Virus record (IMG/VR): IMGVR_UViG_3300035670_013237
Coordinates: 90,001-122,000 of that record
Origin: a virus
DNA length: 32,000 nucleotides
Direction: 5' to 3' (one strand)
Of this stretch, positions 1-30,990 are shown piece after piece. The translations under genes were made by a program, and so were the position numbers. The first letter of the stretch is position 1, and each line of letters opens with the position of its first letter. The notes beneath the pieces were generated by a model, which saw only the letters and a program-made list of their open reading frames with translations, did no database searches and was not told where the DNA came from.

Positions 1-64
1 TGCCTGAGACAATCATATCACCGGGCTGGAGCAGGTCCGCTAAAACGTAATCGCTGAGTTGCAT
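1..64 (-). CDS. small SH3-like GD-motif family protein, 5' part only (continues past left edge)
   Basis: ATG at 64 on the minus strand reads MQLSDYVLADLLQPGDMIVSG...; carries the family LxPGDxV motif; truncated, so absent from the ORF track. Confidence 0.5.
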   Translation of the reverse strand, partial: MQLSDYVLADLLQPGDMIVSG

Positions 65-90
65 TTGGGATGTACTGTGCTTCCTGTATG

Positions 91-297
91 TCATTCTGTG
101 ATGATGTCGAGCTCAGAGTTTGTTGGATACAGGCTCGTGTGTAATTTTAGTGTGCGACAATTAAGCCAGAAGAGCCTGACTGCGCCACTGGGCAAGTCAC
201 GCTTTACCACTCCAATTAAAAAGTGAAAAATGCCTGACTGCTCTTGGAGCCAGATATCTCCAATCTTTAGTTCACTGACTGGTACTCGGACTTTCAC
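91..297 (-). CDS. small SH3-like GD-motif family protein
   Basis: 68-aa ORF with GTG start; LKIGDIW motif; packed between neighbouring minus-strand ORFs. Confidence 0.55.
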   Translation of the reverse strand: MKVRVPVSELKIGDIWLQEQSGIFHFLIGVVKRDLPSGAVRLFWLNCRTLKLHTSLYPTNSELDIITE

Positions 298-314
298 ATT
301 GTTGTTCCACTAAT

Positions 315-590
315 TCAATGCAACCTTCCACTCGAGTGTATAGTGCGCTCGCCGAATTGTGCAACGTGATCGATGTGTAATGTGTGCACCTGTCCGCCCG
401 CTAGCGCTGTGACGATGGACACATCACCCCAAATGCTCGATGGCTTCTTCTCAAGGACCAACATGTCCTTGAAGTCAAGTCCCCACGCCCACAGCAAGTA
501 CTCTGGAACTCCACTTGAGGTCTCTTCGTAGGGTTCCAGGTCAGGTATCGAGACCCAAGTTCCCGGTGTCAGGCTGTCTATCGTCATCAT
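315..590 (-). CDS. hypothetical small protein (start trimmed to MMTIDSLTPG...)
   Basis: The track ORF 315..731 overlaps the methyltransferase by about 190 nt. The internal ATG at 590/587 is preceded by AAGGGTGAA. It still overlaps the MTase 3' end by about 50 nt. Confidence 0.45.
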   Translation of the reverse strand: MMTIDSLTPGTWVSIPDLEPYEETSSGVPEYLLWAWGLDFKDMLVLEKKPSSIWGDVSIVTALAGGQVHTLHIDHVAQFGERTIHSSGRLH

Positions 591-1680
591 GCGTTGATTC
601 ACCCTTCTTATCATCAAAGTACACTGTAGAGCTGCAACTTTGCACGCTCGCTGCCTCTGCTTCTGCAAGCTCAAGGCACTTCCAAAAGAGACCTGCCACC
701 ATGCTGCGGCTGTATATCTTCTGAGTGGCACCCATGTAATTGCTCAAAAAGAGCCCGTGGTATTGTTGTCGAAATTTCTGCATTTTTTCGTTGAATAGCT
801 CGACTACCCTTTCCTGCAGAGGAGGGGGCAGGTCCACGTCTAATACCATCTGGTACGTGGTGAAAGTCGTGTCACGGCACACGATGGGGTCCCCCTTGTT
901 GATCGACAGGCCCTGCGGGGCACGCCCCGCGTCCAGGAGTCCCACGACAATGTTCGTCAAGAAGCCGCTCTCCTTGCCCGTCCACTTGCCGATGGGCCGC
1001 TCAGGACCCTTGATGAAATCGAAGAAGTCCTTGCCGTGGAGCCAGTCGTACTTTCGCTCGAGGTGGAGCTCAACGTAGCGAACATCAGAGCTCGAATAGT
1101 GGATCCTGCACGGGAAGCGTCGCTCTCCTGTGTCGCTGTCACGTCTGAAGGCAAAGATGGTGATGCCTGTCGTCGTGTTAGGGAAGACCTGGTAATAATA
1201 GTAATCGCACTGGGTGATTGTGTACCGTGAGAAGAAGAGCTCCCGGGCCTTAGGGCGACTCTCGGACAAGAAGTTGGTGGGAAGGATGATGACACCCTCA
1301 TCAAGGTCGTCAGCGAAGGACGCAATATGACACTTATAGAGATCGCTTTGTCCCCACATTGCATATGCACCCTTATCCTTATTCTTATTGGACGCGAGAT
1401 ACGGTGGATTGGTGAGGAGGAACTTTCCGGTAAAAGCGGGTGGATTCAGGATCGAGTCCCTCGCGGACACTGCGGGCTGTCGGGGCTCGAGATCATATCC
1501 TTCAACACTTCGGGCGCCATACGCCACCGCGAAGTGAAGCAGATCGCAGTCACCCGCGAACGGATCGATCACATCCTTGTCACGGAGGAGGTGGGTGTAT
1601 AGTCCCAGCAGGTCTTCGGCATTCGTCGTAAAAAATTGTCCGTGCTTCTGCTCGTGCGTCTGGCGCGTGTGCTTCTTCAT
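541..1680 (-). CDS. N6-adenine DNA methyltransferase (gamma-class motif order, Eco57I/TaqI-like)
   Basis: 379 aa; GQFFTT near the N-terminus, AdoMet motif I VIDPFAGDCDLL, then catalytic motif IV LLTNPPYLA. Confidence 0.85.
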   Translation of the reverse strand: MKKHTRQTHEQKHGQFFTTNAEDLLGLYTHLLRDKDVIDPFAGDCDLLHFAVAYGARSVEGYDLEPRQPAVSARDSILNPPAFTGKFLLTNPPYLASNKNKDKGAYAMWGQSDLYKCHIASFADDLDEGVIILPTNFLSESRPKARELFFSRYTITQCDYYYYQVFPNTTTGITIFAFRRDSDTGERRFPCRIHYSSSDVRYVELHLERKYDWLHGKDFFDFIKGPERPIGKWTGKESGFLTNIVVGLLDAGRAPQGLSINKGDPIVCRDTTFTTYQMVLDVDLPPPLQERVVELFNEKMQKFRQQYHGLFLSNYMGATQKIYSRSMVAGLFWKCLELAEAEAASVQSCSSTVYFDDKKGESTHDDDRQPDTGNLGLDT

Positions 1681-1739
1681 GTTCTTTTAATAACAACTAT
1701 CTGTGGTTTGGATTCTAAATTGTGCGGAGAATGACAATA

Positions 1740-1952
1740 TCATTCCACGCTCTGGTGTATGACAAAATCTTTATTGTCATCAAGGACGCCTACATAAAGC
1801 ATTCTATTTCGGCTGGGTCCCCAAAAATGAATGAGGTCGCCTGTCTCAAGACACTCTATTCTAATAATCATACCCGTGGCCAGGTGATCCCGGGCCAGTC
1901 GACCAGAAAAATCGCTGATCAGATAGACGCTGATGAGATCACCTACTTTCAT
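1740..1952 (-). CDS. small SH3-like GD-motif family protein
   Basis: MKVGDLISV N-terminus; ATGA overlap with the upstream stop. Confidence 0.7.
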   Translation of the reverse strand: MKVGDLISVYLISDFSGRLARDHLATGMIIRIECLETGDLIHFWGPSRNRMLYVGVLDDNKDFVIHQSVE

Positions 1953-2161
1953 TCAATTCTTTCCATGAAGGCTTTATAAATTCCGTTTTTTACACCACAA
2001 TTCTGTGTAAGAACAACATAATAGCCCTCATCAATTCTTCCCATGTGATCAACGTGAGGTGTCTTATACGATAGGATGATGCCTAACCCGTAGTGTTTGT
2101 AAGTCGACCAGATGAATTTCACCAGATCACCCGACTTGAATACTTGCGACAGTGCATTCAT
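1949..2161 (-). CDS. small SH3-like GD-motif family protein
   Basis: FKSGDLVKF motif; 70 aa; tightly packed. Confidence 0.7.
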   Translation of the reverse strand: MNALSQVFKSGDLVKFIWSTYKHYGLGIILSYKTPHVDHMGRIDEGYYVVLTQNCGVKNGIYKAFMERIE

Positions 2162-2162
2162 T

Positions 2163-2372
2163 CTATGTCACATCCATATTATAAACCCACTTTATGAGTC
2201 CATCGATCAATACAGTCAGCACGTCCTGCCGGTACTCGTTCTGGTGAATTGATATCACTAAAACAAATTGGTTCTTACGAGTGGACCAGGACCAGGCATT
2301 GCAGGATGGATCATCATAAAATCGTGTGTAGGGTTTCGCCCGCACAACGTCGCCGGGTCGGGTGCCCATCAT
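2163..2372 (-). CDS. small SH3-like GD-motif family protein
   Basis: TRPGDVVRA motif; ATGA overlap with the upstream gene. Confidence 0.65.
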   Translation of the reverse strand: MMGTRPGDVVRAKPYTRFYDDPSCNAWSWSTRKNQFVLVISIHQNEYRQDVLTVLIDGLIKWVYNMDVT

Positions 2373-2662
2373 TTTTTAGAAGCAGGAATCGGCAGCGCAT
2401 AACTGCACAGGACCCACTTCATGCAACCCATGACCAGCACCTGGAACATGTCCAACGATGGTCGCTTTTCGTGCCTGTACCGCGCGAGGACGAGCACAGT
2501 TTCATTGCGCCATCGTTGCAAGCGACTGTTGATGTCCCAGCACTTCATCTTACGTTCAGGATCGTCAAAGAAATCCGCGTACCCCACGATCTCGGCCATG
2601 TCACCTGGATTTATTTCTATCCTTGCGTAGTTTCTTGGATGGTAACTCATGCAACCCTTCAT
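2369..2662 (-). CDS. small SH3-like GD-motif family protein
   Basis: INPGDMAEI motif; ATGA overlap; its C-terminal part resembles ORF 2163..2372 (...VL..G..KWV). Confidence 0.65.
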   Translation of the reverse strand: MKGCMSYHPRNYARIEINPGDMAEIVGYADFFDDPERKMKCWDINSRLQRWRNETVLVLARYRHEKRPSLDMFQVLVMGCMKWVLCSYALPIPASKK

Positions 2663-2907
2663 TTTTCCTGTTGAATGCTCAACATGACTTCATACGTACC
2701 TGTGAGGAACATTATCGTGGGAGTTGATGTGCTTCCATCCATCCATAAGACTCGAAATAATTGAGATTCATGTTCCCTTTCCTCGGGGGGAACGTGACCC
2801 ACGATCAGTCCTCCCAACATTCTTTGTCGAAGTGTGCCAGGTCGCGCCGATTGGTTGCGCCATAGAACTGGCACTTCCTTCAGGAATATCATATCACCGA
2901 GCTTCAT
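2659..2907 (-). CDS. small SH3-like GD-motif family protein
   Basis: MKLGDMIFL N-terminus; overlaps the upstream gene end by 14 nt. Confidence 0.65.
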   Translation of the reverse strand: MKLGDMIFLKEVPVLWRNQSARPGTLRQRMLGGLIVGHVPPEEREHESQLFRVLWMDGSTSTPTIMFLTGTYEVMLSIQQEK

Positions 2908-3100
2908 TCACATTCTCCAAAGCGTATGTTGCGACATAATGAACACAACCATCGAACGTGAGAAGTTTTGTAACTGTGTATGGATCGCTCTCGGCGTCAG
3001 GAGGAAGACAGAGGAAAAATGTGTCATCAAATGTCCAATGACTCTTGTATTCCTGACGCATCTGTAAGAGAGAACCGGTTTTATATGACTTCAAGGGCAT
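2894..3100 (-). CDS. hypothetical small protein (possible divergent family member, YKTGSLLQM)
   Basis: 68-aa ORF with ATG start; fills the gap in the minus-strand array. Confidence 0.5.
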   Translation of the reverse strand: MPLKSYKTGSLLQMRQEYKSHWTFDDTFFLCLPPDAESDPYTVTKLLTFDGCVHYVATYALENVNEAR

Positions 3101-3245
3101 ATGTCCCCAAATTAATTATCCCAACCTGGGATATGACCTGAACACAACCAACTCCAGGAAAACCCACTATAAGAAACACGGAGTTTGGATTGAAAGTGGT
3201 ACCATGATATGCAATTTTGAACTTCATCAGGTCTCCAACTTTCAT
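3081..3245 (-). CDS. small SH3-like GD-motif family protein (54 aa, below the ORF-track cutoff)
   Basis: Hand translation: MKVGDLMKFKIAYHGTTFNPNSVFLIVGFPGVGCVQVISQVGIINLGTYALEVI*; promoter-like boxes at 3270-3298 lie just upstream. Confidence 0.55.
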   Translation of the reverse strand: MKVGDLMKFKIAYHGTTFNPNSVFLIVGFPGVGCVQVISQVGIINLGTYALEVI

Positions 3246-3269
3246 CGCATTGTCTCATCTGTTAGGATT

Positions 3270-3298
3270 AGAATAACCTAATTTTGATTAGGTTTACA
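3270..3298 (-). promoter_or_regulatory. two-box promoter-like element (minus strand)
   Basis: TGTAAA (3298-3293) - 17 nt - TATTCT (3275-3270), within GTGTAAACC; overlaps the 3' end of ORF 3278..3544; upstream of ORF 3081..3245. Confidence 0.45.
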
Positions 3299-3544
3299 CT
3301 GGAAGATGTAGAAATTATCGACTCCTTCATACGAATATTTTCCTACGCGATATCCTAGTTTGGTGACTGCGCCAATCCAACCCAGGTGACTCCATTTCAC
3401 CTCAATACGTGCCTCGTGTGTGTAACCTCCAGCACAAATCCAGACGCCATCTTTCTCTGGATGGCGATAACCCCTGTTTGGCCCGGACTTGATTGAGGTC
3501 CGTGAACTAATCTTACCGTGCTTGTCCCTCCCGAGGTCTTCCAT
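3278..3544 (-). CDS. hypothetical protein
   Basis: 88-aa ORF, ATG start, 2-nt gap to the upstream stop. Confidence 0.6.
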   Translation of the reverse strand: MEDLGRDKHGKISSRTSIKSGPNRGYRHPEKDGVWICAGGYTHEARIEVKWSHLGWIGAVTKLGYRVGKYSYEGVDNFYIFQCKPNQN

Positions 3545-3546
3545 CG

Positions 3547-3768
3547 TTACAACTTGACCCCGAGCATCGCCTCAACTTTGAGACGCACTTCTGAGAATCG
3601 AGTAAGAATGTATTGCGCTTTCGCCAGGTCCAAGTTCGGAACGTTAGGAAGATCACCGTCGTCGAGCATCATTCTCCACGCACTTTGACACTCCATAAGC
3701 ACAAAAAGGATTACACGTAAATCATCATGGGTCATCAATTGCACTTTCAATTGCACTTCTTCGTTCAT
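3547..3768 (-). CDS. hypothetical protein
   Basis: 73-aa ORF, ATG start, codirectional packing. Confidence 0.6.
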   Translation of the reverse strand: MNEEVQLKVQLMTHDDLRVILFVLMECQSAWRMMLDDGDLPNVPNLDLAKAQYILTRFSEVRLKVEAMLGVKL

Positions 3769-3793
3769 TTCACATTACCTCCGATACCGTTCT

Positions 3794-3991
3794 TCAATCA
3801 TAATCGCTGTGACAATAAATCAACCAGGTGTCTGAGTCATTATAGACACCACCATGTTTACTACGAGGAGGTACAAAAAAGAAACGTGGAAAATCTACTG
3901 CAATAGACCATTTCATAAATCCCTCGAGAGAATCCACCTCAATCTCACTCGGGAGAAATTCACCGTCTCTGTCACGTATTAAAAACTTCAT
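3794..3991 (-). CDS. hypothetical protein
   Basis: 65-aa ORF, ATG start. Confidence 0.55.
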   Translation of the reverse strand: MKFLIRDRDGEFLPSEIEVDSLEGFMKWSIAVDFPRFFFVPPRSKHGGVYNDSDTWLIYCHSDYD

Positions 3992-4012
3992 GTTCGCTTC
4001 CCATCCTTTCCA

Positions 4013-4291
4013 TTAGGAGAATGGATGATTCTCCTCAAGTGATTTCCAACCCCACCCAGTGTAGACACCGTTGGTGACGAACTGATAATTTATGACTCTG
4101 GACACTGGAACATGGTGTCTGTATACCCTTCCAAGGAGGGAAGAGTGCACCAAGAAAATCTTCAAGATCCCATCTTTAGGGATTCCAGGTTCTTCACCAA
4201 CGATTGTGTAAATAGTGTTTTGATGTAGGCACGCAATGACGTCACCAACCTGCAATTCACACTCTAACGCTTCGGACCCAATCGATCGCAT
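4013..4291 (-). CDS. small SH3-like GD-motif family protein
   Basis: LQVGDVIAC motif; 92 aa. Confidence 0.65.
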   Translation of the reverse strand: MRSIGSEALECELQVGDVIACLHQNTIYTIVGEEPGIPKDGILKIFLVHSSLLGRVYRHHVPVSRVINYQFVTNGVYTGWGWKSLEENHPFS

Positions 4292-4292
4292 C

Positions 4293-4472
4293 TCAGTACC
4301 CTACGAGGTGCCTATCGCTCTTGAATTCTGTGAGAATCTCCCACATGAGACCCGGGAGTGAACTACGGATGTGAAGGTAACACCCGCCATAAGAGGCACA
4401 CCAACACGAACCAGGAGATACAACACCTGGTTTCTCCTTCCATATGCGAAACGTCCTCAAGATTCTCCACAT
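4293..4472 (-). CDS. hypothetical 59-aa protein, possibly translated from a leaderless mRNA
   Basis: Hand translation: MWRILRTFRIWKEKPGVVSPG...HLVGY*; the ATG lies exactly 6 nt after a TATGAT box of a TGTAAA-N17-TATGAT element; the stop abuts the next start. Confidence 0.4.
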   Translation of the reverse strand: MWRILRTFRIWKEKPGVVSPGSCWCASYGGCYLHIRSSLPGLMWEILTEFKSDRHLVGY

Positions 4473-4478
4473 GAAACG

Positions 4479-4507
4479 ATCATATCATGGATTGAGTAAG
4501 ATTTACA
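4479..4507 (-). promoter_or_regulatory. two-box promoter-like element (minus strand)
   Basis: TGTAAA (4507-4502) - 17 nt - TATGAT (4484-4479), with TGA just upstream of the -10; the TAA stop of ORF 4503..4673 lies inside GTGTAAA; the ATG of the next ORF is 6 nt downstream. Confidence 0.5.
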
Positions 4508-4673
4508 CCGGTGTGAGATAATGATTCGTGATGAGCTTGATTTCCTCGCGGATGAAAATCCAATAAAAACGAGAATCAACCGCGACCCCGAGTTTCTCCC
4601 CAATCAATAGTCCCAAGGTGGGAGGAATCATCCGTTGTGGATTACTATAAACCACGAGGTCTCCAGGTTTCAC
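4503..4673 (-). CDS. small SH3-like GD-motif family protein (56 aa, GTG start)
   Basis: Hand translation: (V)KPGDLVVYSNPQRMIPPTLGLLIGEKLGVAVDSRFYWIFIREEIKLITNHYLTPV*; GTGA overlap with the stop of 4670..4987. Confidence 0.55.
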   Translation of the reverse strand: MKPGDLVVYSNPQRMIPPTLGLLIGEKLGVAVDSRFYWIFIREEIKLITNHYLTPV

Positions 4674-4987
4674 GACGATTCGATTTCAGGCAATGAAATG
4701 TCTTTAATCGCTTCGGCACAGTCATCAGCAAGGGTTGGAGCGTAGTACGATTCCGAGTAACCAATTCCTAAGCACGCTTTCATTGAGGCAGCGCGCATGA
4801 GTTCCGCACCTTCCCGGCGGGCGGAGGTGACTGAAGCAAGGGCTTCGTCTCGTTGGCGCTTCATGTCACCCAATGCCTCTGCAAAAATCTTGTAAAGAGG
4901 TAGGGGTAATTCATTCAACTTATTTAGCGCGCGCTCATATGGGCTAAGTTTGACGGTCGGAGACACCATTTTTCTTTCTTTGTTCAT
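4670..4987 (-). CDS. hypothetical protein
   Basis: 105-aa ORF, ATG start. Confidence 0.65.
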   Translation of the reverse strand: MNKERKMVSPTVKLSPYERALNKLNELPLPLYKIFAEALGDMKRQRDEALASVTSARREGAELMRAASMKACLGIGYSESYYAPTLADDCAEAIKDISLPEIESS

Positions 4988-4991
4988 AATG

Positions 4992-5204
4992 TCAATCCTC
5001 AGCCTCTGGTAACCTCAAGGCGGCTTTGCACATGTCATAAATGCTCGGTTCATCGTCCCAACCCTCAAAGGCATGTGACCTTAGCGCATCGGCTTCTAGG
5101 ATGATGCGAATCACCTCTCTCATTTCTTCGACCTTTTGTCGAAGTTCTGAACAATGATAGTAACCCGACTCTCCGCAATGACATCTAGGTTCTGTTTTAT
5201 TCAC
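4992..5204 (-). CDS. hypothetical protein
   Basis: 70 aa; GTG start preceded by AAGGAGG. Confidence 0.6.
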   Translation of the reverse strand: MNKTEPRCHCGESGYYHCSELRQKVEEMREVIRIILEADALRSHAFEGWDDEPSIYDMCKAALRLPEAED

Positions 5205-5223
5205 AATTCCTCCTTCTCAGTCA

Positions 5224-5490
5224 TTATAAGGTTCCAAGCGCTTCACCGACACGGCATGCAAGGCACCGTTCACAATCGTCGTCGTGCGACTCGGGGTCAT
5301 GGTCACAATCACAATTGCAACCGTTCTCACCTAGAATCTCTCCTATGGATTCCAGTTTAACTTTCAAGTTTCCGATGCAAATCAATTTATCTGGATGAAA
5401 GAAATTACCTTTGAATTCTATGAACTCAGAATCCTCGGGAATGTTACACTTACAACTGGAACAACGCTTGGGTACATTTTTCTTCTTCAA
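5224..5490 (-). CDS. Cys-rich small protein (putative metal-binding)
   Basis: 88 aa; TTG start 9 nt after GAGGAG; CSSCKC ... CNCDCDHD ... CERCLAC cysteine clusters. Confidence 0.6.
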   Translation of the reverse strand: MKKKNVPKRCSSCKCNIPEDSEFIEFKGNFFHPDKLICIGNLKVKLESIGEILGENGCNCDCDHDPESHDDDCERCLACRVGEALGTL

Positions 5491-5493
5491 TTT

Positions 5494-5721
5494 TTAGTTC
5501 TCCTCAACGTTCTTCAGACCAGCGATTTTTGTTGAAAATTCCTGAAGTTGTTCCTCAGAATCGAAATGAAATCTAACGTTGTTGGAATTTTGGTTGAGGT
5601 CGATTGTGCAATTCCACATGTGAAACCACAATCCTCCCATGTCACTTTCGTTGATTTCAACACCGATATTTCCAACAAGGAACTTTCTGTAATAAGGTCC
5701 GTGAGAATTTCTGTTCTTCAT
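5494..5721 (-). CDS. hypothetical protein
   Basis: ATG at 5721 preceded by GGAGGTG; the track start at 5724 is a GTG one codon upstream. Confidence 0.6.
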   Translation of the reverse strand: MKNRNSHGPYYRKFLVGNIGVEINESDMGGLWFHMWNCTIDLNQNSNNVRFHFDSEEQLQEFSTKIAGLKNVEEN

Positions 5722-5884
5722 CACGCTTCACCTCCATCGATTTCGATCATTCGAACCTTAAACCATCTTCCGTTGCTACGATATCTCCAGAAATCGATCG
5801 CTTCAGGTGCACTAATGGTAACCCTGAGTTCCCTTGTCTGGGTGGTCAAGAGGTGGGTCAAGATGTACGTTATATTTCATAGTT

Positions 5885-6151
5885 TTACTTCACTTCTTTA
5901 CAGGAATTCATGACGTTCGAGACCTGTAGGGGAATGTAAGGTGCGAAGATATACCCACGCTCGGGGGAGTCGAAATATTCTATATTTTGATTCCATAAAA
6001 CCTTTGACGTATTTTTATCGATTATTTCTATGATGATTCCTGTGGTACCGGTGAAATAATCATGGACCATGTCACCCACACCGTGGGTGTCCAACTGTTT
6101 CTTGTCGGATCCCACTAGAGAACCGTTGGAATGAATGTGAATCCTACCCAC
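5885..6151 (-). CDS. small SH3-like GD-motif family protein
   Basis: GTG start preceded by GGGAGGAAGC; internal GVGDMVHD motif. Confidence 0.6.
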   Translation of the reverse strand: MGRIHIHSNGSLVGSDKKQLDTHGVGDMVHDYFTGTTGIIIEIIDKNTSKVLWNQNIEYFDSPERGYIFAPYIPLQVSNVMNSCKEVK

Positions 6152-6452
6152 GCTTCCTCCCGCGCCTTGGACTTGAATCCTTCAGCGATTTCAAAACTTT
6201 GAACAATTTGTAATAGTGTGGATGTGCATCGGTCACGCTTTTGACCCATCCGGTGATTTGTGACGTCATGACACGTATCCAAATCCAGTCTCCGTCGACG
6301 CTGCGCTGGACGTCGAGGATGAGGACCAAATCTCTAGGGGAAATTTCGCCCACATAGCCACCCTCGACAGAGTCGACCGGTGCCATTTGGATCAAACTGC
6401 GATATGCGCGAATGTACTCGCAGAGTTCTCCTTGTTTTACGACGTAATTCAT
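6144..6452 (-). CDS. SH3-like small protein
   Basis: 102 aa; VKQGELCEY N-terminal variant plus ITGWVKSV (the GW[IV] signature typical of bacterial SH3 domains); ATGA overlap. Confidence 0.65.
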   Translation of the reverse strand: MNYVVKQGELCEYIRAYRSLIQMAPVDSVEGGYVGEISPRDLVLILDVQRSVDGDWIWIRVMTSQITGWVKSVTDAHPHYYKLFKVLKSLKDSSPRRGRKRG

Positions 6453-6649
6453 GTTTCAACCTTCTCGGTTATGTTCTGCGAGCCATGTATTCGGAAGTAC
6501 ATGATACCATGCTTGGTGAGTGTTTTACAATGATCCTCAACCGGATCATGATCTTCAATAACCTCAAGGATCAATCCAAGGACCCAGTTGATATTCTTGG
6601 TGAACGGATTTATTCCCCTGCGAAATGCGACGAGATCACCCGGTTTCAC
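6449..6649 (-). CDS. small SH3-like GD-motif family protein (GTG start)
   Basis: The track ORF 6449..6745 overlaps its neighbour by 100 nt. The GTG at 6649 gives (V)KPGDLVAF... and a GTGA overlap with the stop of 6646..6924. Confidence 0.6.
   Translation of the reverse strand: MKPGDLVAFRRGINPFTKNINWVLGLILEVIEDHDPVEDHCKTLTKHGIMYFRIHGSQNITEKVET
6501..6529 (-). promoter_or_regulatory. two-box promoter-like element (minus strand, intragenic)
   Basis: TGTAAA (6529-6524) - 17 nt ending CATGG - TATCAT (6506-6501); lies inside ORF 6449..6649, upstream of ORF 6144..6452. Confidence 0.4.
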
Positions 6650-6924
6650 TTGAGCACCTCGACCTTTTCTAGGTGGATTAGGCCGGTCTGGAAACGAGGA
6701 TTTAAAACGAGAAGATGGTTTCTCTTGGCACCCAAGACAAGACACAGGTCGGTGTTATTGAAATCCGCATGAGGTGCACCATTTAGAAGCCTGAGGTCCT
6801 TGGGATCTCGAAGGTAATATCCATACTCTTTTTGAGGTGGAACTGAGCGCCAATCATAGAAAGCGTCGGTCCCCCTCCTCAAGACGACAAAGTCGCCAAT
6901 GTTAACAGGATCGCCAGGTTTCAT
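6646..6924 (-). CDS. small SH3-like GD-motif family protein
   Basis: MKPGDPVNIGDFVVL; ATGA overlap. Confidence 0.65.
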   Translation of the reverse strand: MKPGDPVNIGDFVVLRRGTDAFYDWRSVPPQKEYGYYLRDPKDLRLLNGAPHADFNNTDLCLVLGAKRNHLLVLNPRFQTGLIHLEKVEVLK

Positions 6925-7178
6925 TTCAGATCTCCCTCATTCAGAACTTCAATCATCCACATCTCATGAATCCAACCTATGCCCCGGTGTGTCAATAATT
7001 TAACATACACCCGGCCGGCCCAAACCCCTGTTTCAAGGTATAATCCAACATCATGAACTCCAAGCGGAATGTCAGTTGGCACGAGCACATTTCTGGTTAC
7101 GTGTGGTTCATATAAAACAAGGGTTGAAGGATGATGTCTGACTGAGTCCTTCAACATGACAAGATCACCAGGTTTCAC
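6921..7178 (-). CDS. small SH3-like GD-motif family protein
   Basis: (V)KPGDLVML with GTG start and GTGA overlap; C-terminal RGIGWIHE motif. Confidence 0.7.
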   Translation of the reverse strand: MKPGDLVMLKDSVRHHPSTLVLYEPHVTRNVLVPTDIPLGVHDVGLYLETGVWAGRVYVKLLTHRGIGWIHEMWMIEVLNEGDLK

Positions 7179-7426
7179 TTCAGGGGATATCCATATCTTC
7201 GACCATTGAATCGGATCTCGTCATCAGTCAACCATCCCCGAGGGTCTGCTTGATACCTCCACCGAACCCAGACGACGTCAATGTCAATGATCCCGCGGCA
7301 AGAACGAAGTGCCCGATCAATCATCCTTCCTTCCTCAACCGTATATCCATCGGGATTATCACACATCTTCCAAGCAATATGACGCAGAGCCTCGGCAACG
7401 ATATCTTCTCTGTTCTGAAACTTCAT
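7175..7426 (-). CDS. hypothetical protein
   Basis: 83 aa; ATGA overlap on both sides. Confidence 0.65.
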   Translation of the reverse strand: MKFQNREDIVAEALRHIAWKMCDNPDGYTVEEGRMIDRALRSCRGIIDIDVVWVRWRYQADPRGWLTDDEIRFNGRRYGYPLK

Positions 7427-7632
7427 GTGCTACCCCTCTTGAACTTATTGGTAGCCTCAACCACGAGCCATTCTTTTCCCTCAAGGATCTCGATGCCGTT
7501 TGTTGTTAGCACCCTGTATCTTTTGGGAAAGTTTATGTACAGCGGAGGAAGGGGTTTTTCGAGAAGAATTCCAAACCAAATCAATCGTCCGGAACCTTTG
7601 TATCGGGCAGTAATTAGATCACCAGTTTTCAT
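7423..7632 (-). CDS. small SH3-like GD-motif family protein
   Basis: MKTGDLITA; ATGA overlaps. Confidence 0.7.
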   Translation of the reverse strand: MKTGDLITARYKGSGRLIWFGILLEKPLPPLYINFPKRYRVLTTNGIEILEGKEWLVVEATNKFKRGST

Positions 7633-7856
7633 TGCACGACCTTGAGACTGTTAGGGAGAATCCACTCTACAGACTTTTTACGATCGGGACCATAGTATTG
7701 TATGTGTGGATACACAATCATGTTCTCTATAGGAGCATTATTCCAAAAAATCGACAATTTTGCACCGCGATTGGGATCCATTCGCTCAGTAAATTCAATG
7801 ATGATCCCGATGCTTCCATCACCCCCACTATCACAGATAAGATTGCCAACTTTCAT
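7629..7856 (-). CDS. small SH3-like GD-motif family protein
   Basis: MKVGNLICD; ATGA overlaps. Confidence 0.7.
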   Translation of the reverse strand: MKVGNLICDSGGDGSIGIIIEFTERMDPNRGAKLSIFWNNAPIENMIVYPHIQYYGPDRKKSVEWILPNSLKVVQ

Positions 7857-8095
7857 GATGTCCCCAATTTCTCACAACATACTTCGGCGACATATACGAT
7901 TACACCCTCGACTAAAACTTTCATCAAGGGTCGTTTGCAATCTCGATGAGACCAATCTACCTTGGTTTCAAGGCACAACATCGGATTTAGTGATCCCCTC
8001 TGGAATCGAGGTAAACGAACTGTCCATCCTTCTTCGTCATAAAGATCCGCATATGTATAATCAGGTTTTATGACGACCATATCACCGGGGTTCAT
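7853..8095 (-). CDS. small SH3-like GD-motif family protein
   Basis: Start trimmed to the ATG at 8095 (MNPGDMVVI), preceded by GGGAGGGTGAA; the track start at 8110 would include the RBS. Confidence 0.65.
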   Translation of the reverse strand: MNPGDMVVIKPDYTYADLYDEEGWTVRLPRFQRGSLNPMLCLETKVDWSHRDCKRPLMKVLVEGVIVYVAEVCCEKLGTS

Positions 8096-8096
8096 T

Positions 8097-8426
8097 TCAC
8101 CCTCCCACATCCTCGATCATCTCTTGTTTAATCCAACCTATTCCTTTGGAAGTAAGGATTTTGAGATAAGGAACATTTCCTTGGTACGGTTGGTTCGTAT
8201 TCTTCTTGTATAGCGTGCAAATTACATGTGTGTTATCTAATACCAACCCAACATCGCCGGGATTGAAGAGCAAATCACAAAAAAAGATATATCCATGCTC
8301 GTCTTTGAAGTCTGGATGACATAGCCTTGTAGGCTGCGGAATCTGAAGTATGGTTGTGCGTAACCATTCTTCATCATAAGAATCGGTGTAATACGACGTC
8401 AGGACGACCATGGCGCCGGGCTTCAT
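8097..8426 (-). CDS. small SH3-like GD-motif family protein
   Basis: Start trimmed to the ATG at 8426 (MKPGAMVVL), preceded by GTGGGTGAA; second FNPGDVGLV motif; SKGIGWIKQE near the C-terminus. Confidence 0.65.
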   Translation of the reverse strand: MKPGAMVVLTSYYTDSYDEEWLRTTILQIPQPTRLCHPDFKDEHGYIFFCDLLFNPGDVGLVLDNTHVICTLYKKNTNQPYQGNVPYLKILTSKGIGWIKQEMIEDVGG

Positions 8427-8427
8427 T

Positions 8428-8673
8428 TCACCCACTCTCACGAGCCGCGACACGTCGATTCACTTCGGAAATTAGAAGCTGTGCCGCTTCAACGCTCAAC
8501 CTAAAGCTGGAAGACCAATTTTCGCTGGACAACATGATGTCGGGGTCGACACCATTTACTCGATATCCCGGAAAAAGGGACGCAACCTCATCAGCGAGAG
8601 TGAACCATTCCTTTGCATAATGTTCAGAATCTGAACAGGCAGTTCCATCAGGCAGTTTAAACAGTCTAGTCAT
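8428..8673 (-). CDS. hypothetical protein
   Basis: 81-aa ORF, ATG start. Confidence 0.6.
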   Translation of the reverse strand: MTRLFKLPDGTACSDSEHYAKEWFTLADEVASLFPGYRVNGVDPDIMLSSENWSSSFRLSVEAAQLLISEVNRRVAARESG

Positions 8674-8682
8674 TGTTTGCGC

Positions 8683-9015
8683 TCACTTACTGTGAAAGTG
8701 GATCATCTGGAATAATTCTTTTGCTTCGGAAGGATTACGATCTACCTGTTCCCAGGCGAGAATTGATAGATTGTGAATCTTTTTGAGCTTTTCACGAAGC
8801 CGTTCGATCTCCGCACGAAGTTCAGACCCCTCGATCTCCTTGAGCTTCTTCTCAACGTTCGCTTCTGTCTTGAGATTGAGGATTAGATTTTTGACGTGTG
8901 CGGCGGCATGGTGTGCCGATCGATCCTTCCAAGGAGCAGCTTCAGCAATCTCATCGCAAATATACTTCAGCAACCGTGAATCAGATTCATCATACTTATC
9001 TTCTGGATGTGACAT
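8683..9015 (-). CDS. hypothetical protein (charged, coiled-coil-like)
   Basis: 110 aa; preceded by a GGAG RBS and a TGCAAA-N17-TAAGGT element at 9037-9065. Confidence 0.65.
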   Translation of the reverse strand: MSHPEDKYDESDSRLLKYICDEIAEAAPWKDRSAHHAAAHVKNLILNLKTEANVEKKLKEIEGSELRAEIERLREKLKKIHNLSILAWEQVDRNPSEAKELFQMIHFHSK

Positions 9016-9036
9016 CGTGTGTCTCCTCTTGAGATG

Positions 9037-9065
9037 ACCTTACCATGGTCCTGAGAAGGTTTGCA
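9037..9065 (-). promoter_or_regulatory. two-box promoter-like element (minus strand)
   Basis: GGGGTGCAAACC: TGCAAA (9065-9060) - 17 nt ending CATGG - TAAGGT (9042-9037); followed by GGAG and the ATG at 9015. Confidence 0.5.
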
Positions 9066-9075
9066 CCCCGCGAGG

Positions 9076-9327
9076 TTAAGATATTTCATCAACGTTCTCA
9101 TCATCAACCCAGCCGACGCCAGTTGACGTTAAGATGCACAGAATATAGTGATATTTTCTGTGCCCTCGTCTGTATCCAATGATCATGCCCAGCTCAAACG
9201 GACCCATGGAACGAGAGTACCACCACATGTTTTCATCATTGTAGATGTAGGTTGACCGACAGAGATCGATCTCACTCTGTCTCTTTACGACAAAAGTTCC
9301 TAACTTGGGTGTGTACTCATCTTCCAT
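9076..9327 (-). CDS. SH3-like small protein
   Basis: 83 aa; PKLGTFVVK variant and STGVGWVDDE C-terminal motif. Confidence 0.65.
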   Translation of the reverse strand: MEDEYTPKLGTFVVKRQSEIDLCRSTYIYNDENMWWYSRSMGPFELGMIIGYRRGHRKYHYILCILTSTGVGWVDDENVDEIS

Positions 9328-9330
9328 GAT

Positions 9331-9495
9331 TCATAATTTTTTCAGGATGTTTGGGCTATGACGTTCAAGCAACATGTCGCTGAACAAGACTCGCAGCAAC
9401 CCGCTCGTCAAATTTTCAACCACAAGCCCATATCTTCGAGGTACTTCGGTAATCCTGAGGATAACAAGGTCACCTGGGAGCAGGTTATGTTCCAT
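9331..9495 (-). CDS. small SH3-like GD-motif family protein (54 aa, below the track cutoff)
   Basis: Hand translation: MEHNLLPGDLVILRITEVPRRYGLVVENLTSGLLRVLFSDMLLERHSPNILKKL*. Confidence 0.5.
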   Translation of the reverse strand: MEHNLLPGDLVILRITEVPRRYGLVVENLTSGLLRVLFSDMLLERHSPNILKKL

Positions 9496-9655
9496 TCTCG
9501 TCCTTACTACGGAGATCTGATATCAGCTTTTCCACCAAAGAAGCTATCTCATCGGTCGACATCTTCTTTATTTGTTCTCCCACTTCGTCATCACCGAGAA
9601 CAAGATCGACAGATGTGGGGGTGACGACAAACTCTGTGTGCTTCGTGATCTTCAT
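9485..9655 (-). CDS. hypothetical 56-aa protein, possibly leaderless
   Basis: Hand translation: MKITKHTEFVVTPTSVDLVLGDDEVGEQIKKMSTDEIASLVEKLISDLRSKDENGT*; the ATG lies 6 nt after the TATTTT box of TGTAAA-N17-TATTTT. Confidence 0.45.
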   Translation of the reverse strand: MKITKHTEFVVTPTSVDLVLGDDEVGEQIKKMSTDEIASLVEKLISDLRSKDENGT

Positions 9656-9661
9656 GAAAGA

Positions 9662-9690
9662 AAAATACCATGTGTGACGGTGAATTTACA
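9662..9690 (-). promoter_or_regulatory. two-box promoter-like element (minus strand)
   Basis: TGTAAA (9690-9685) - 17 nt ending CATGG - TATTTT (9667-9662); the TAA stop of ORF 9686..9919 lies inside GTGTAAA; the ATG at 9655 is 6 nt downstream. Confidence 0.5.
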
Positions 9691-9919
9691 CAACATCGTA
9701 CATTTCAGACGACAACACCATCCCCGTGACACACTGAATCCCACCCTCAAGGTTGACCAGATATTTCACGTGGTACCATGTGGTCCGCTTCCCAAGCACA
9801 TTGGTCATCGAATAATCCCGCTCTATGGACACTACCAGCGCCATCACCGGGGCGGGTGAATGCTGAAACCGGACATAATCTCCCGGGCGTAAGTCCTCAA
9901 TGCCCACCCGCCTTAACAT
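9686..9919 (-). CDS. small SH3-like GD-motif family protein
   Basis: LRPGDYVRF motif; 77 aa. Confidence 0.65.
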   Translation of the reverse strand: MLRRVGIEDLRPGDYVRFQHSPAPVMALVVSIERDYSMTNVLGKRTTWYHVKYLVNLEGGIQCVTGMVLSSEMYDVV

Positions 9920-10245
9920 ACAAACTCGTACAGGGTTCCCTCGATCACACTACGTTTATCTATGTAGCTCCTATCCCCTGATAAGAGGAGGAGCAAGTCG
10001 TACGTGCATATTCGACGCTCACCATCGATGATATCTCCCCAGATCACGGGCTCAGGTGGACCGACCCACAGCACCATCCCCACGTACCAACCGATTGGAG
10101 CTCCGTCGCCCACGTACCCGTATGAACGAACCATGATGACGTCACCGGGTCGCAGCGCCTCGATCGACACCATCAGGCTCCCGTCGGACTTTACGAGGGG
10201 CGTTTCAGGTGTATAGATCACCAAATCGTCCATTGGATTCGTCAT
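9913..10245 (-). CDS. small SH3-like GD-motif family protein (GC-rich member)
   Basis: Start trimmed to the ATG at 10245 (MTNPMDDLV...), which gives an ATGA overlap with the upstream stop; LRPGDVIMV motif. Confidence 0.6.
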   Translation of the reverse strand: MTNPMDDLVIYTPETPLVKSDGSLMVSIEALRPGDVIMVRSYGYVGDGAPIGWYVGMVLWVGPPEPVIWGDIIDGERRICTYDLLLLLSGDRSYIDKRSVIEGTLYEFVC

Positions 10246-10451
10246 TCTGCTGGCTCCCCGCGGCTGATGACACAGAAGACGCGTCCGAGGGTGTCTGGTG
10301 TGGCGACCTCCCGCCACATGCGACCCTCCTGCATCCACAAGATGTTCCGCTCACCGTCGGCCCCGAGAACGACACGCAGTCGTCCGCTCGTCCAGGTGTC
10401 GATGACGAGGTCACCTGGCTGTAGGCCGTCGACGTTCATTCTTGTGATCAT
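10242..10451 (-). CDS. small SH3-like GD-motif family protein (first gene of the minus-strand array)
   Basis: Start trimmed to the ATG at 10451 (MITRMNVDGLQPGDLVID); the longer track ORF would overlap the divergent plus-strand gene; 10439 is an alternative start. Confidence 0.55.
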   Translation of the reverse strand: MITRMNVDGLQPGDLVIDTWTSGRLRVVLGADGERNILWMQEGRMWREVATPDTLGRVFCVISRGEPAE

Positions 10452-10502
10452 AAAGTGCACAGGTAGACCATACCTATTGGTGGCTGAAAAAATACAGGGA
10501 AA

Positions 10503-10934
10503 TTGAAATTGAGGCTCACACTCAGACAACTCAAGAATATTATTCAAGAGGCACTCACCACCTCTACGTTCGGTGACCTGACACTCGAGGAGGACATGGA
10601 CGAAAAGAGGGGGAGGTACAAGATCACCGTCTTCCATCCTAAGACCTTCAGCTTCCCAGGCCACCCGGACCTCACGGTTCCAGATTATGAAACCTCACAA
10701 ATGGAAGCCCGAATTGCAGACGGTGAGCTGGAGATCGTCAGCATTCGTGTCGATCCCTCCCACAGACGGCGGGGCATCGCACGTCACATGGTGAACTTGG
10801 CCCTTGATGCTGCCCATAGCATGGGACTCACTCTCACATCTTCAGGCATTTATTCAGCAGAGGGCTCATCTCTCTTGGCATCACTGGGGGGCATGGTGTC
10901 TCCCCACGGCGTGCGGCACAAGATCTCACGTTAG
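10503..10934 (+). CDS. GNAT-like N-acetyltransferase domain protein with conserved N-terminal MK(L/I)TLxQLKxIIxE leader
   Basis: 143 aa; TTG start; IVSIRVDPSHRRRGIARHMVNLALDAA resembles GNAT motif A (R/Q-x-x-G-x-A); the N-terminus matches those of ORFs at 16092 and 24517. Confidence 0.55.
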   Translation: MKLRLTLRQLKNIIQEALTTSTFGDLTLEEDMDEKRGRYKITVFHPKTFSFPGHPDLTVPDYETSQMEARIADGELEIVSIRVDPSHRRRGIARHMVNLALDAAHSMGLTLTSSGIYSAEGSSLLASLGGMVSPHGVRHKISR

Positions 10935-12205: not shown

Positions 12206-12234
12206 ATTATACCAAGTGTTGCCGCAAAGTTCAA
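12206..12234 (-). promoter_or_regulatory. near-consensus sigma70-type promoter of the PurA-like gene
   Basis: TTGAAC (12234-12229) - 17 nt ending TGG - TATAAT (12211-12206), then GGAGG and the ATG at 12182. Confidence 0.6.
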
Positions 12235-12402
12235 CCCTACAAGTTCACAGTTCAAATTCATGGTTTACAATTCTCTTTGCAACAGCGCGCTGCGCGAGGA
12301 ACAAGACACATGATTGCGACAAACAACAGAAGAGATTGAGCATTTCATTGCGGGCAGATGCCACATACCGGCATCTTGCCGTCCATTGATAAGGTTAAAT
12401 TC

Positions 12403-12996: not shown

Positions 12997-13428
12997 ATGG
13001 CGGCACCAAATACAGAACCTGTTTTTTCAAGAGTCGCCGACGTGCAATGGGTCGACAATGTTGTCACAGCGAACAATACCATCGACCTCACGAGCGGCAC
13101 GAATTATCTCGTGTTCACCGCCGACTCAACCAACGGTGGTTTCGTCCGCAATGCGCGCGTGAAGGTCAATCCAGCCAACAGCAGTGCCGCAACCGTCGTG
13201 CGCTTCTGGCTCAATAACGGCTCGACGACTGGCACGGCGTCGAACTCTGCCATCATTGGCGAGCTTGGCCTACCGGCCACGACGACCTCTGCGACCGCTC
13301 CGTTGCCGGATTTCGACTACGGTCTGAACATGGCACTCCCGCCAGGATACAAGATTTACGTCACTGTCGGCACTGCGCCAGGCGGAAGCTGCGAGCTGAC
13401 CGTCACAATCTTCGGTGGAAAGTACTGA
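12997..13428 (+). CDS. hypothetical protein, possibly virion-associated
   Basis: 143 aa, Thr/Ser/Asn/Gly-rich; immediately precedes the three glycine-rich paralogues with a 1-nt TGATG overlap. Confidence 0.6.
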   Translation: MAAPNTEPVFSRVADVQWVDNVVTANNTIDLTSGTNYLVFTADSTNGGFVRNARVKVNPANSSAATVVRFWLNNGSTTGTASNSAIIGELGLPATTTSATAPLPDFDYGLNMALPPGYKIYVTVGTAPGGSCELTVTIFGGKY

Positions 13429-14285: not shown

Positions 14286-14288
14286 CCC

Positions 14289-15140: not shown

Positions 15141-15143
15141 CCC

Positions 15144-17679: not shown

Positions 17680-17708
17680 CGTCTCCATGGGGACCGCTCG
17701 CATCGAAA

Positions 17709-23479: not shown

Positions 23480-23656
23480 ATGAAGCGCATCAAGATTGGC
23501 GACGTCGTTACGTGCGAGGGTCTCAACTGGATCGTCACTGCCCTTACCCGGGGACGCGACAAGCTCGCACGACTCTCTGTCCCAGGTGACCTCAGCCTGC
23601 AGAATGTCATCTACCGCCGGGTCGAGGAGCTGGAGAACCCAGGACCCTGGCGCTGA
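23480..23656 (+). CDS. small SH3-like GD-motif family protein (plus-strand, GC-rich member)
   Basis: The ATG at 23480 follows AAGGAG; MKRIKIGDVVTC motif. Confidence 0.6.
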   Translation: MKRIKIGDVVTCEGLNWIVTALTRGRDKLARLSVPGDLSLQNVIYRRVEELENPGPWR

Positions 23657-25081: not shown

Positions 25082-25087
25082 TGACAG

Positions 25088-26632: not shown

Positions 26633-26920
26633 ATGTCACACTCATTCCGGATCGGAGACATGGTTCGGCTTCACAGGGATCGCAACCACGACAAGTTTGG
26701 GTACAGAGGACAAAACGTCTGGAAGTATGAAGATGGGTGGATGCAACAGACCGCCAGCCAAGTGCGCTATGATGAAATCTGTATCGTCCTGGGTGAGGTA
26801 TACCTCGAGGCGCCCTGGCCCGGGCGACGTGGGAAGTCTGAGGCGTCAGGCACTTGGTACCAAGTACACAATTCTAGCGCCACGGGATGGCTCCACAAAA
26901 ACGCTCTAGAACCGGTGTAA
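26633..26920 (+). CDS. SH3-like GD-motif family protein (plus-strand member)
   Basis: 95 aa; FRIGDMVRL and SATGWLHKN motifs; preceded only by a degenerate cassette. Confidence 0.65.
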   Translation: MSHSFRIGDMVRLHRDRNHDKFGYRGQNVWKYEDGWMQQTASQVRYDEICIVLGEVYLEAPWPGRRGKSEASGTWYQVHNSSATGWLHKNALEPV

Positions 26921-30588: not shown

Positions 30589-30990
30589 ATGAAAGGACGT
30601 AAGGTGACATGGAAGGCAGGCGAGGACCCGGCGGTTGCCGGACGCCCTGCACCTCCCCCACGGTACAGGGGAGCGCAGAGCACCTCTCACCTGGAGAAGA
30701 TCGCTGACCAGTTGTACCCAGGAGCGCTCCTTGCCTGCGAACGAGAACTATACGTGGACACGTACCACACGAATCTTCCCCATCCGCTCCTTGTCACGAG
30801 CGATCCAGCCTGGGCACAGGCGGCGCCCACTGTCGCTCATCGGGGTGACCTTGTCATCTATGCCGGCACTGTACGTTACGAGGAGGAGACTTCAAAGAGT
30901 TCTCTGCGTGTCGTACGTCACACGGTCATCTGCCGGGGACAACGATACATCCTCAGCACTCTCGACGGAGTGAAGCCTGTCGACGATTAA
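30589..30990 (+). CDS. hypothetical protein with C-terminal SH3-like GD motif, possibly leaderless
   Basis: 133 aa; HRGDLVIYAG motif; the ATG lies 6 nt after the TAGAGT box of the element at 30554-30582. Confidence 0.55.
   Translation: MKGRKVTWKAGEDPAVAGRPAPPPRYRGAQSTSHLEKIADQLYPGALLACERELYVDTYHTNLPHPLLVTSDPAWAQAAPTVAHRGDLVIYAGTVRYEEETSKSSLRVVRHTVICRGQRYILSTLDGVKPVDD

Follow-up and report, generated by a model that had tools for sequence, protein, structure and literature searches.

It is firmly established that the window analysed here, a stretch of 32,000 nt from a large uncultured freshwater phage (IMGVR_UViG_3300035670_013237, positions 90,001-122,000), contains a multigene family of stand-alone, single-domain SH3-like barrels of 54-110 amino acids (aa), represented by 19 secure copies. 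Eighteen of them belong to a dense minus-strand gene array (91..10451) and one lies outside it. Taken as a whole, this SH3-like family is best explained as a repertoire of independent stand-alone binding modules, which we hold to be probable by a modest degree. Multigene families are rare in phages.

Organization of the array

The SH3-like array (91..10451, minus strand) consists of about 39 tightly packed genes, joined mostly by 4-nt ATGA/GTGA overlaps. The guanine plus cytosine (GC) content of this block is 43-47%, compared with 55-65% in the remainder of the window. About half of the array genes are family members, between which unrelated small genes and one Eco57I-like methyltransferase are interspersed. 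Unlike the plus-strand genes of the window, the array is devoid of phage-type promoter cassettes.

The N-terminal motif

A previous sequence-only reading of this DNA had drawn attention to a short motif near the N-terminus of many of these proteins. The pattern G[DN][LMVIFY][VILMAC] was found in 19 of the 38 small minus-strand genes of 91-10664, and in 17 of these it lies among the first 30 residues; composition-preserving shuffles of the same set gave 2.5 ± 1.5 and 0.8 ± 0.9, respectively. The stricter form xxGDhh was observed 17 times against an expectation of 0.23, and the motif was nearly absent from off-frame translations of the same DNA. The motif is therefore where it had been placed and is not random. 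A degenerate form was recognized in six more genes: 91 (IGDIW), 315 (PGTWV), 2894 (TGSLL), 6144 (QGELC), 8097 (PGAMV) and 9076 (LGTFV). The resulting total of 25 is close to the "at least 26" minus-strand open reading frames (ORFs) that had been counted. The five C-terminal GW strings quoted at the same time are all present, in 6921, 8097, 9076, 6144 and 26633.

Homology and membership

Direct pairwise comparison of the window ORFs with phmmer connected only 2163 with 2369, and 6921 with 8097, 7853 and 9076; since this approach was too insensitive, profiles were used instead. Transitive jackhmmer searches with the ORFs from all six frames of the window and of the related locus L001 placed 39 ORFs in one cluster (16 from the window and 23 from L001), all of them in the coding frame. 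Further phage loci were fetched by means of a degenerate DNA pattern for MKPGDLV. Iterated hidden Markov models (HMMs) gave 493 hits in 75 loci, two of them on the minority strand, and no hits at E<0.01 on reversed-sequence decoys. The matches span the whole length of the members (about 60 columns) and not the motif alone. Sub-profiles of the long and short forms, built from different phages, were aligned by hhalign with a probability of 97.3% (E 2e-11). The ORFs are thus homologous beyond the short motif, as the strand-consistent hits and the clean decoys demonstrate.

The union of HMM-supported window members amounts to 19, namely 18 on the minus strand and 26633-26920 on the plus strand. 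Single-sequence hhalign against the family profile, with 14 non-motif ORFs as controls (best control p 0.054), added 9686, 10242 and 2894 as likely members (p 3e-4 to 6e-4); support was weaker for 2659, 315 and 23480 (p 4e-3 to 8e-3). The ORFs 91 and 4013 are equivocal, their p values of about 0.04-0.05 being no better than that of the best control. Accordingly, the figure of about 29 paralogues given earlier was too high: 19 are robust and roughly 22-25 plausible. With the family taken as stand-alone proteins of 50-120 aa that match its profile of five core strands over their full length, the 19 ORFs belong to it by HMM and three more by hhalign at p<1e-3. The ORF at 30589, once included in the family, is not supported as a member. 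The secure members are listed below, all on the minus strand except the last.

1740..1952 (-), short form, MKVGDLI; jackhmmer cluster, HMM, hhalign p 1.4e-4
1949..2161 (-), ..FKSGDLV..; E 1.7e-9; orthologue of 49% identity in the 278-kb contig described below
2163..2372 (-), long form, RPGDVV...IKWV; HMM 6.7e-9, hhalign
2369..2650 (-), long form, closest paralogue of 2163-2372 (35% identity); phmmer 1e-8; start as called in L002
3081..3245 (-), short form, MKVGDLM; HMM 6e-7, hhalign 4e-7
4503..4673 (-), archetypal short form, VKPGDLVVY; 122 jackhmmer hits; predicted five strands
5885..6151 (-), motif at residue 26; HMM 3e-5, hhalign weaker (4.7e-3)
6144..6452 (-), long form, ITGWV and a basic C-terminal tail; HMM 9e-5, jackhmmer, hhalign
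6449..6649 (-), short form, VKPGDLVAF, true start GTG at 6649; HMM 7.8e-11
6646..6924 (-), long form, MKPGDPVNIGDFVV; HMM 2e-4, hhalign 5e-7
6921..7178 (-), long form, VKPGDLV...RGIGWIHE; predicted fold matches SH3 domains
7423..7632 (-), short form, MKTGDLI; hhalign 5.6e-5; absent from strain L125
7629..7856 (-), MKVGNLI; HMM 3.5e-5, hhalign 1.4e-4
7853..8095 (-), long form, MNPGDMVVI; HMM 1e-7, hhalign 4e-9
8097..8426 (-), longest form, MKPGAMV...FNPGDVGLVL...SKGIGWIKQE; hhalign 3e-8
9076..9327 (-), long form, ..KLGTFVV...STGVGWVDDE; HMM 6e-6, hhalign 3e-7
9331..9495 (-), short form, LLPGDLVIL; HMM 5e-3, hhalign 2e-5; absent from L125
9913..10245 (-), member with an N-terminal extension, ..LRPGDVIMV..; 54% GC; hhalign 4e-4
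26633..26920 (+), long form outside the array, FRIGDMV...SATGWLH; 55% GC; HMM 9.5e-7, hhalign 2.5e-9; preceded by the plus-strand intergenic cassette

The remaining candidates are graded as follows.

9686..9919 (-), likely divergent member, LRPGDYV; hhalign p 2.8e-4, no HMM hit
10242..10451 (-), likely divergent member and first gene of the array, LQPGDLVID; hhalign p 4.3e-4
2894..3100 (-), likely divergent member, degenerate TGSLL; hhalign p 5.9e-4
2659..2907 (-), possible member, MKLGDMI; motif, hhalign p 3.8e-3
315..590 (-), possible member, LTPGTWV; hhalign p 3.9e-3
23480..23656 (+), possible member, IKIGDVV, 61% GC; hhalign p 8e-3, no HMM hit
91..297 (-), equivocal motif-bearing ORF, LKIGDIW; hhalign p 0.04
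4013..4291 (-), equivocal motif-bearing ORF, LQVGDVI; hhalign p 0.047
30589..30990 (+), unsupported ORF, RGDLVIY near the C-terminus; no HMM hit, hhalign p 0.81

For the first gene of the array only the short form 10242-10451 is credible, because a 140-aa ORF at 10242-10664 overlaps the GNAT acetyltransferase gene at 10503-10934 (+). The public gene call chose this overlapping minus-strand ORF instead of the GNAT gene.

Architecture of the members

The information content of the family is concentrated in five core strands, in which the conserved elements are (M/V)K(P/V)GDLV (strand 1), G-(L/I/V)x3-E (strand 2), hydrophobic-K-V-L (strand 3), G-x-I-G-W-I (strand 4) and L-E-V-(V/I) (strand 5). 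Strands 1 and 2 are joined by a loop of about 5 to 50 residues, the counterpart of the RT-loop region of SH3 domains, and the long form differs from the short form by an insertion of about 25-30 residues at this position. Loops 2-3 and 3-4 are also variable, so that loop occupancy, length and sequence all vary. The conserved polar residues comprise the Gly-Asp turn and two Glu and no others. The isoelectric points (pI) of the members span 4.9-10.0, from which varied surfaces can be argued.

The stand-alone architecture is not restricted to the window. Among 564 stand-alone hits in about 190 fetched viral loci, 563 contain no extra region and one carries a 67-residue C-terminal extension; a recognizable fusion partner was found in none.

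Fold and relationship to catalogued families

The AlphaFold2 (AF2) model of the long-form member 6921-7178, computed from an alignment of window paralogues and database relatives, is all-beta, with a predicted local distance difference test score (pLDDT) of 85.9 and a predicted template modelling score (pTM) of 0.76. Comparison of this model with the PDB by Foldseek gave nearly exclusively SH3 domains among the top 50 matches (probability about 1, template modelling score on the target 0.6-0.7), and the matches in BFVD were small uncharacterized phage proteins and endolysin SH3b domains. When the family profile was compared with PDB sequences, HEF-like and Pex13 SH3 domains were retrieved at E about 0.01, followed by those of Shank2, p67phox and intersectin; the alignments put the Y-x-D stretch of the long forms on the ALYDY motif. 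The model and the profile hits to SH3 and SH3_3 bear out the small SH3-like barrel that had been proposed from the letters of the DNA, a structural class defined by five or six antiparallel strands that form a strongly bent barrel of SH3 topology and about 60 residues.

An exhaustive profile search of 1.84 billion cluster representatives retrieved 143 proteins at E<=1e-3, most of them stand-alone and 65-95 aa long. The long proteins matched in multiple stretches were bacterial SH3_3-repeat proteins in ten of ten cases checked with Pfam; they carry 4-16 SH3_3 domains, several are cell-wall hydrolases, and the library-wide E values were 2e-14 to 1e-3. The top match of this search (P0014, 1870 aa, 30 stretches) was set aside as an artefact, as it consists of a 62-aa unit repeated perfectly in tandem.

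No member reached a Pfam gathering score. The best relative scored 22.5 bits against SH3_3 (PF08239), short of the 27-bit gathering threshold, and the best window member gave E 0.019-0.027 to SH3_4 and SH3_2. All sub-threshold Pfam matches were small barrels (SH3_3, SH3_2, GW, SH3_CYT4, DUF4926, FeoA, NifZ and KOWx), one member matching KOWx_SPT5 at E 0.077-0.086; CarD, KOW and Tudor gave no hits in the Pfam scan of the members. The NCBIfam and PADLOC scans of the members returned no matches, and PHROGs gave only weak matches to families of unknown function, without a named model. For these reasons the family is to be placed in the SH3 superfamily as a divergent branch, as yet uncatalogued, with SH3b as its nearest neighbour. 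Full-text literature searches yielded no description of the family.

The resemblance to SH3_3 (clan SH3) comprises the fold class, a sequence relationship detectable by profile, recurrent SH3_3 matches of members below the threshold, the G-x-hydrophobic-G-W-hydrophobic pattern of strand 4 and the hydrophobic strands 2 and 3. The phage proteins differ in being stand-alone and cytoplasmic-looking, without signal peptide or catalytic partner, and in beginning with the (M/V)K(P/V)GDLV strand; moreover, they form arrays of separate genes, whereas SH3_3 domains occur as repeats within one polypeptide. The extracytoplasmic context typical of SH3_3 is not seen, as the N-terminus is itself the conserved strand MKPGDLV and fusions were found in 0/564 copies. 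In structure, the long-form model agrees best with the eukaryotic-type SH3 domains (PF00018), such as those of Pex13, HEF-like, myosin I, Abl and spectrin; marginal profile hits (E about 0.01) put the Y-x-D of the long forms on ALYDY, with the later strands in register. The phage family differs from these domains in the absence of the WW dipeptide and of SNY/PxxY, and its short forms are without an RT loop. Of the canonical SH3 groove, only the Y-x-D remnant is seen, in long forms only, and the Trp is located in the GW of strand 4 and not in the WW of strand 3.

Distribution in other phages

The window has a relative in the viral contig IMGVR_UViG_3300044641_009805 (278 kb), whose MoxR-like ATPase is 65% identical to that of the window and of whose family members one shows 46% identity. 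The window sequence is also present on an 86-kb Logan contig, and one of its proteins recurs on a 271-kb JGI contig; a megablast search with 9 kb of the window found no near match among GenBank phages. The family is widely distributed in uncultured phages: arrays of 10-27 members were found in many IMG/VR contigs of 50-340 kb, and copies per locus range from 1 to 27, L155 containing 27 members in 21 kb. Although the family reaches 10-27 copies per genome in many of these phages, it has no Pfam or NCBIfam entry and no PHROG functional label. The earlier statement that no equivalent is described holds insofar as neither a Pfam, NCBIfam or PADLOC model nor a paper was found, but the arrangement itself is common in uncultured phages. 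A family profile would annotate hundreds of "hypothetical" small genes and would flag a distinct accessory region.

The arrays often adjoin a MoxR-like ATPase and a VWA/metallopeptidase-like gene (L067, L079, L093, L119, L155). The corresponding module of the window is located at 28663-30450, with member 26633 upstream among small plus-strand genes. The window ATPase is at most 35% identical to those of Schitoviridae and large Vibrio phages. Its relatives fall in freshwater bins of metagenome-assembled genomes from four unrelated taxa; these were judged to be binning artefacts, and because of this inconsistent taxonomy no host could be inferred. A tblastn search of GenBank phages with three family sequences gave no usable hit among cultured phages, and no family member was found in the early regions of two N4-like isolates sharing the ATPase. 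In another phage locus, the 5.3-kb contig L004 (3372-5199), a mobile element adjoins the family array: behind three members lie a serine-recombinase-like gene (MerR + Resolvase) and a gene resembling IS605 OrfB/TnpB.

The arrays resemble known host-takeover clusters, such as the 26-gene host-takeover module of SPO1 (PMC6873191) and the early small-ORF regions of N4-like phages, which likewise are distinct regions of dense, small, co-directional and mostly unannotated genes; in Schitoviridae a MoxR-like ATPase marks the early/middle boundary, and in many related contigs the arrays adjoin such an ATPase. The difference is that the SPO1 and N4-like clusters encode unrelated proteins, whereas about half of the array genes here belong to one paralogous family. 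A second comparison is offered by Bacillus phage G, in which about 35 copies of a zinc ribbon represent a lineage-specific expansion (Iyer et al. 2021, PMC7824862). In both cases a very small domain has multiplied to tens of copies within one large phage genome. They differ in the domain, a zinc ribbon there and an SH3-like barrel here, and in the occurrence, which is one genome there and many phages of 50-340 kb here, with tandem genes and stereotyped overlaps.

Evolution, selection and gene overlaps

The best paralogue pairs of the window are at most 35% identical and several members are closer to counterparts in other phages, which indicates that the duplications are old. This agrees with the earlier supposition of an old family, as does the range of 39-55% GC among members. 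The GC content of the array lies about 10 points below its surroundings in the window, and the array of the 278-kb phage (47-48%, against 55% around its ATPase) has this low value in common; arrays of more distant phages match their surroundings.

Comparison with the closely related strain L125 (JGI 3300023179) gave ratios of nonsynonymous to synonymous substitution (dN/dS) of 0.02-0.35 for the orthologues, and members 7423 and 9331 are missing from that strain. Each gene is thus under purifying selection, as expected of real, functional genes, while the content turns over between strains. Diversifying selection, for which a test had been suggested, is not what the orthologues of these two strains display.

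Of 199 junctions between neighbouring members in the various phages, 139 are overlaps of 14 nt and 41 are of the ATGA type. The loci with the 14-nt overlap include L067, L079, L060, L062, L155 and others; the junctions of the window are mostly of the 4-nt type, with the 14-nt form at 8097/7853 and 2894/2659. In the longer overlap, A GTG AAA GTA GGT GA, one stretch of nucleotides encodes both the end of the upstream protein (...SESR-stop) and the beginning of the downstream one (VKVGD), and the upstream TGA sits within the GGTGAY that encodes the downstream Gly-Asp. Since the TGA is contained in GGTGA, the motif Gly codon is biased, being GGT in 66% of cases compared with 31% elsewhere. A Shine-Dalgarno-like signal in the Gly-Asp codons was considered and rejected, as the overlapping TGA explains the GGT bias better. 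The stereotyped 14-nt and 4-nt overlaps constitute a clean natural system for the study of termination-reinitiation coupling.

Proposed role and alternative explanations

The copies are most likely independent small binding modules for different host or phage macromolecules. This reading is favoured by the variable loops around a conserved core, by the mixed surface charge, by the lack of export signals and of fusions, and by the location in an accessory region; the orphan methyltransferase, the absence of cassettes and the low GC of the array fit an accessory or takeover region. The following course of events can be proposed. The array would go back to the tandem duplication, long ago, of a unit that overlaps the 5' end of the next gene with its own 3' end; the family is remotely related to bacterial SH3b (SH3_3) domains. 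Individual copies are kept by purifying selection but gained and lost between strains, and the co-directional, translationally coupled minus-strand genes would produce the members together. The products would be small, presumably cytoplasmic modules, each using its variable loops to recognize a host or phage macromolecule of its own, and may act as inhibitors or adaptors during infection, probably early. If the copies do bind different host targets, the arrays would represent a compact source of natural inhibitors and an engineerable scaffold of about 55 residues.

Several observations weigh against this explanation. The binding role is drawn only from the fold and the pattern of variation. 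The Foldseek E values of the long-form model are weak (0.03-0.2). The short member 4503-4673 was modelled as a five-stranded sheet with moderate confidence (pLDDT 73.7), and its best Foldseek match has E 0.8, small barrels being enriched among the weak matches. An arms race does not follow from purifying selection between strains alone. Dual coding accounts for part of the extreme conservation of the N-terminal motif, which overstates the constraint at the protein level. A promoter of the array was looked for at its start (10451) and none was identified. Finally, any binding would not be classical PxxP recognition, as judged from the unconserved groove residues and the near absence of an RT loop in the short forms.

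One may speculate that each copy of this binder repertoire neutralizes or redirects a different host protein, for example a defence component, so that copy number and content track local host defences and the arrays represent widespread, unrecognized counter-defence or takeover loci of uncultured phages of 50-340 kb. This extension is tentative and we regard it as doubtful; PADLOC gave no hits.

An unlikely alternative is that the proteins are nucleic-acid-binding small barrels of the Sso7d, KOW, Tudor, Hfq or integrase C-terminal type, which would coat or regulate the DNA or RNA of phage or host instead of binding proteins. The SH3-like small-barrel class contains many DNA and RNA binders, the weak Foldseek hits of the short form include PWWP on ssDNA, Hfq, the HIV integrase C-terminal domain and Tudor, and basic members exist, such as 7423 (pI 10.0) and 6144 (pI 9.5), the latter ending in an RRGRKRG tail. 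Acidic or neutral proteins (pI 4.9-6.5), however, make up about half of the family, and a family-wide conserved basic patch or aromatic platform is absent. The relevant Foldseek matches have E>0.8, and the Pfam families KOW, CarD and Hfq were not hit.

Less probable still is a function as cell-wall-binding SH3b modules of the endolysin or autolysin type, acting at the envelope in adsorption, lysis or superinfection exclusion. The only significant profile hits to an annotated family are the SH3_3 repeats of glucosaminidases and of NlpC/P60 or CHAP hydrolases, and the BFVD neighbours include endolysin SH3b domains. On the other hand, the proteins begin with the strand MKPGDLV and, as read from the sequences, have no signal peptide or membrane anchor, catalytic or other domains are fused to none of the 564 copies, and the Pfam SH3_3 matches remain below the cut-off (best 22.5 versus 27 bits). 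Lysis genes do not adjoin the array, and at least 20 paralogues per genome are unlike any known cell-wall-binding repertoire.

The paralogues might also assemble into hetero-oligomers similar to Sm/LSm rings, the array then encoding one multi-subunit particle. Translational coupling favours stoichiometric co-production, the Sm fold is an SH3-like barrel and Hfq occurs among the weak structural hits; but the number of copies per locus varies from 1 to 27 and close strains differ in the presence of single members, unlike a fixed stoichiometry, and the AF2 models contain no Sm-type N-terminal helix, so that this arrangement is very improbable.

That the motif is too short for homology and that unrelated proteins converged at their N-termini through initiation or gene-overlap constraints, as the two small phmmer groups and the Gly-Asp codons shaped by the upstream stop codon might suggest, is hardly credible and for the 19 core members is refuted by full-length profile matches without decoy or off-frame hits, by the conservation of the downstream core strands and by AF2 modelling, which gave a beta barrel for a long and, independently, for a short member, leaving such a reading only for 91, 4013 and 30589.

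Other features of the window

The other annotated genes within and next to the array are listed below; several further unannotated genes are contained in the array.

541-1680 (-), Eco57I-like orphan methyltransferase inside the array; Pfam match sub-threshold, NPPY motif visible
4992-5204 (-), small Cys-rich protein inside the array, 4 Cys
5224-5490 (-), small Cys-rich protein inside the array, 10 Cys; CxxC and CxC patterns in this and the preceding protein
10503-10934 (+), GNAT acetyltransferase, Pfam Acetyltransf_1 30.7 bits (cut-off 20.7); convergent with purA, divergent from the array
10926-12182 (-), full-length PurA adenylosuccinate synthetase of bacterial type; E 7e-113 to solved PurA structures
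12206-12234 (-) and 12244-12271 (+), divergent promoter region

Both Cys-rich proteins are possibly zinc-binding, to judge from their Cys patterns; neither has a Pfam match. The purA gene is an auxiliary metabolic gene. It is preceded on the minus strand by a near-perfect extended -10 sigma-70 promoter (TTGAAC, 17 nt, TGgTATAAT, then GGAGG), which suggests that it is transcribed by the host RNA polymerase. A PurZ-type enzyme and hence a Z-base (2-aminoadenine) genome were considered and rejected, as the enzyme is of the ordinary PurA type and PurZ is absent among the matches listed. A single operon of purA and the array was likewise rejected, since the GNAT gene lies between them on the opposite strand; for the same reason the array is taken to start at 10451. 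No tRNAs were found in the window.

An intergenic cassette of about 90 nt is present in at least 16 copies in 21893-27862, before nearly every small plus-strand gene, with partial copies at 17995, 28643, 30533 and 31019. It consists, in this order, of an A-run, a GC hairpin with the loop TGCAAA (GGGCCGGGGG/CCCCCGGNCC), the conserved GTGGTACAACAGATTCA, the hairpin GGTGGGG ATGGTA CCCCACC and a GGAG ribosome-binding site, and folds at -42 kcal/mol (z -2.9). The cassette looks like a phage-specific unit of terminator, promoter and 5'-untranslated region. Spurious ORFs in other frames, for example "VQTPGPLWYNRFKRWGWYPT", also arise from it. The exact pattern is absent from all other fetched loci and from the SH3-like array.

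At 13428-16043 (+) three tandem paralogous genes (285, 283 and 299 aa) follow a gene for a 143-aa protein. Their products begin alike, with M(I/F)D(L/F)(L/S)H(L/V)P, and have an extremely high Gly content that includes runs of GGGGG; they are possibly proteins of fibres or of the surface. The region 16900-18100 has 61-65% GC and no convincing ORFs, and contains the repeats GGGGACTAGTCGAGCTAGTACGTGC and TTCTCTCCGCCCTTAAGGGAAATGAGTCAC, each four times. A second, smaller duplicated family is represented by the paralogous proteins of about 91-94 aa encoded at 24192-24467 and 27205-27489 (+), which are 3022 nt apart, 77-80% identical in DNA over parts of their length, and share the motifs EWRF(T/K)DAKGRL(F/Y)NVY and FEAWVLS(F/L).

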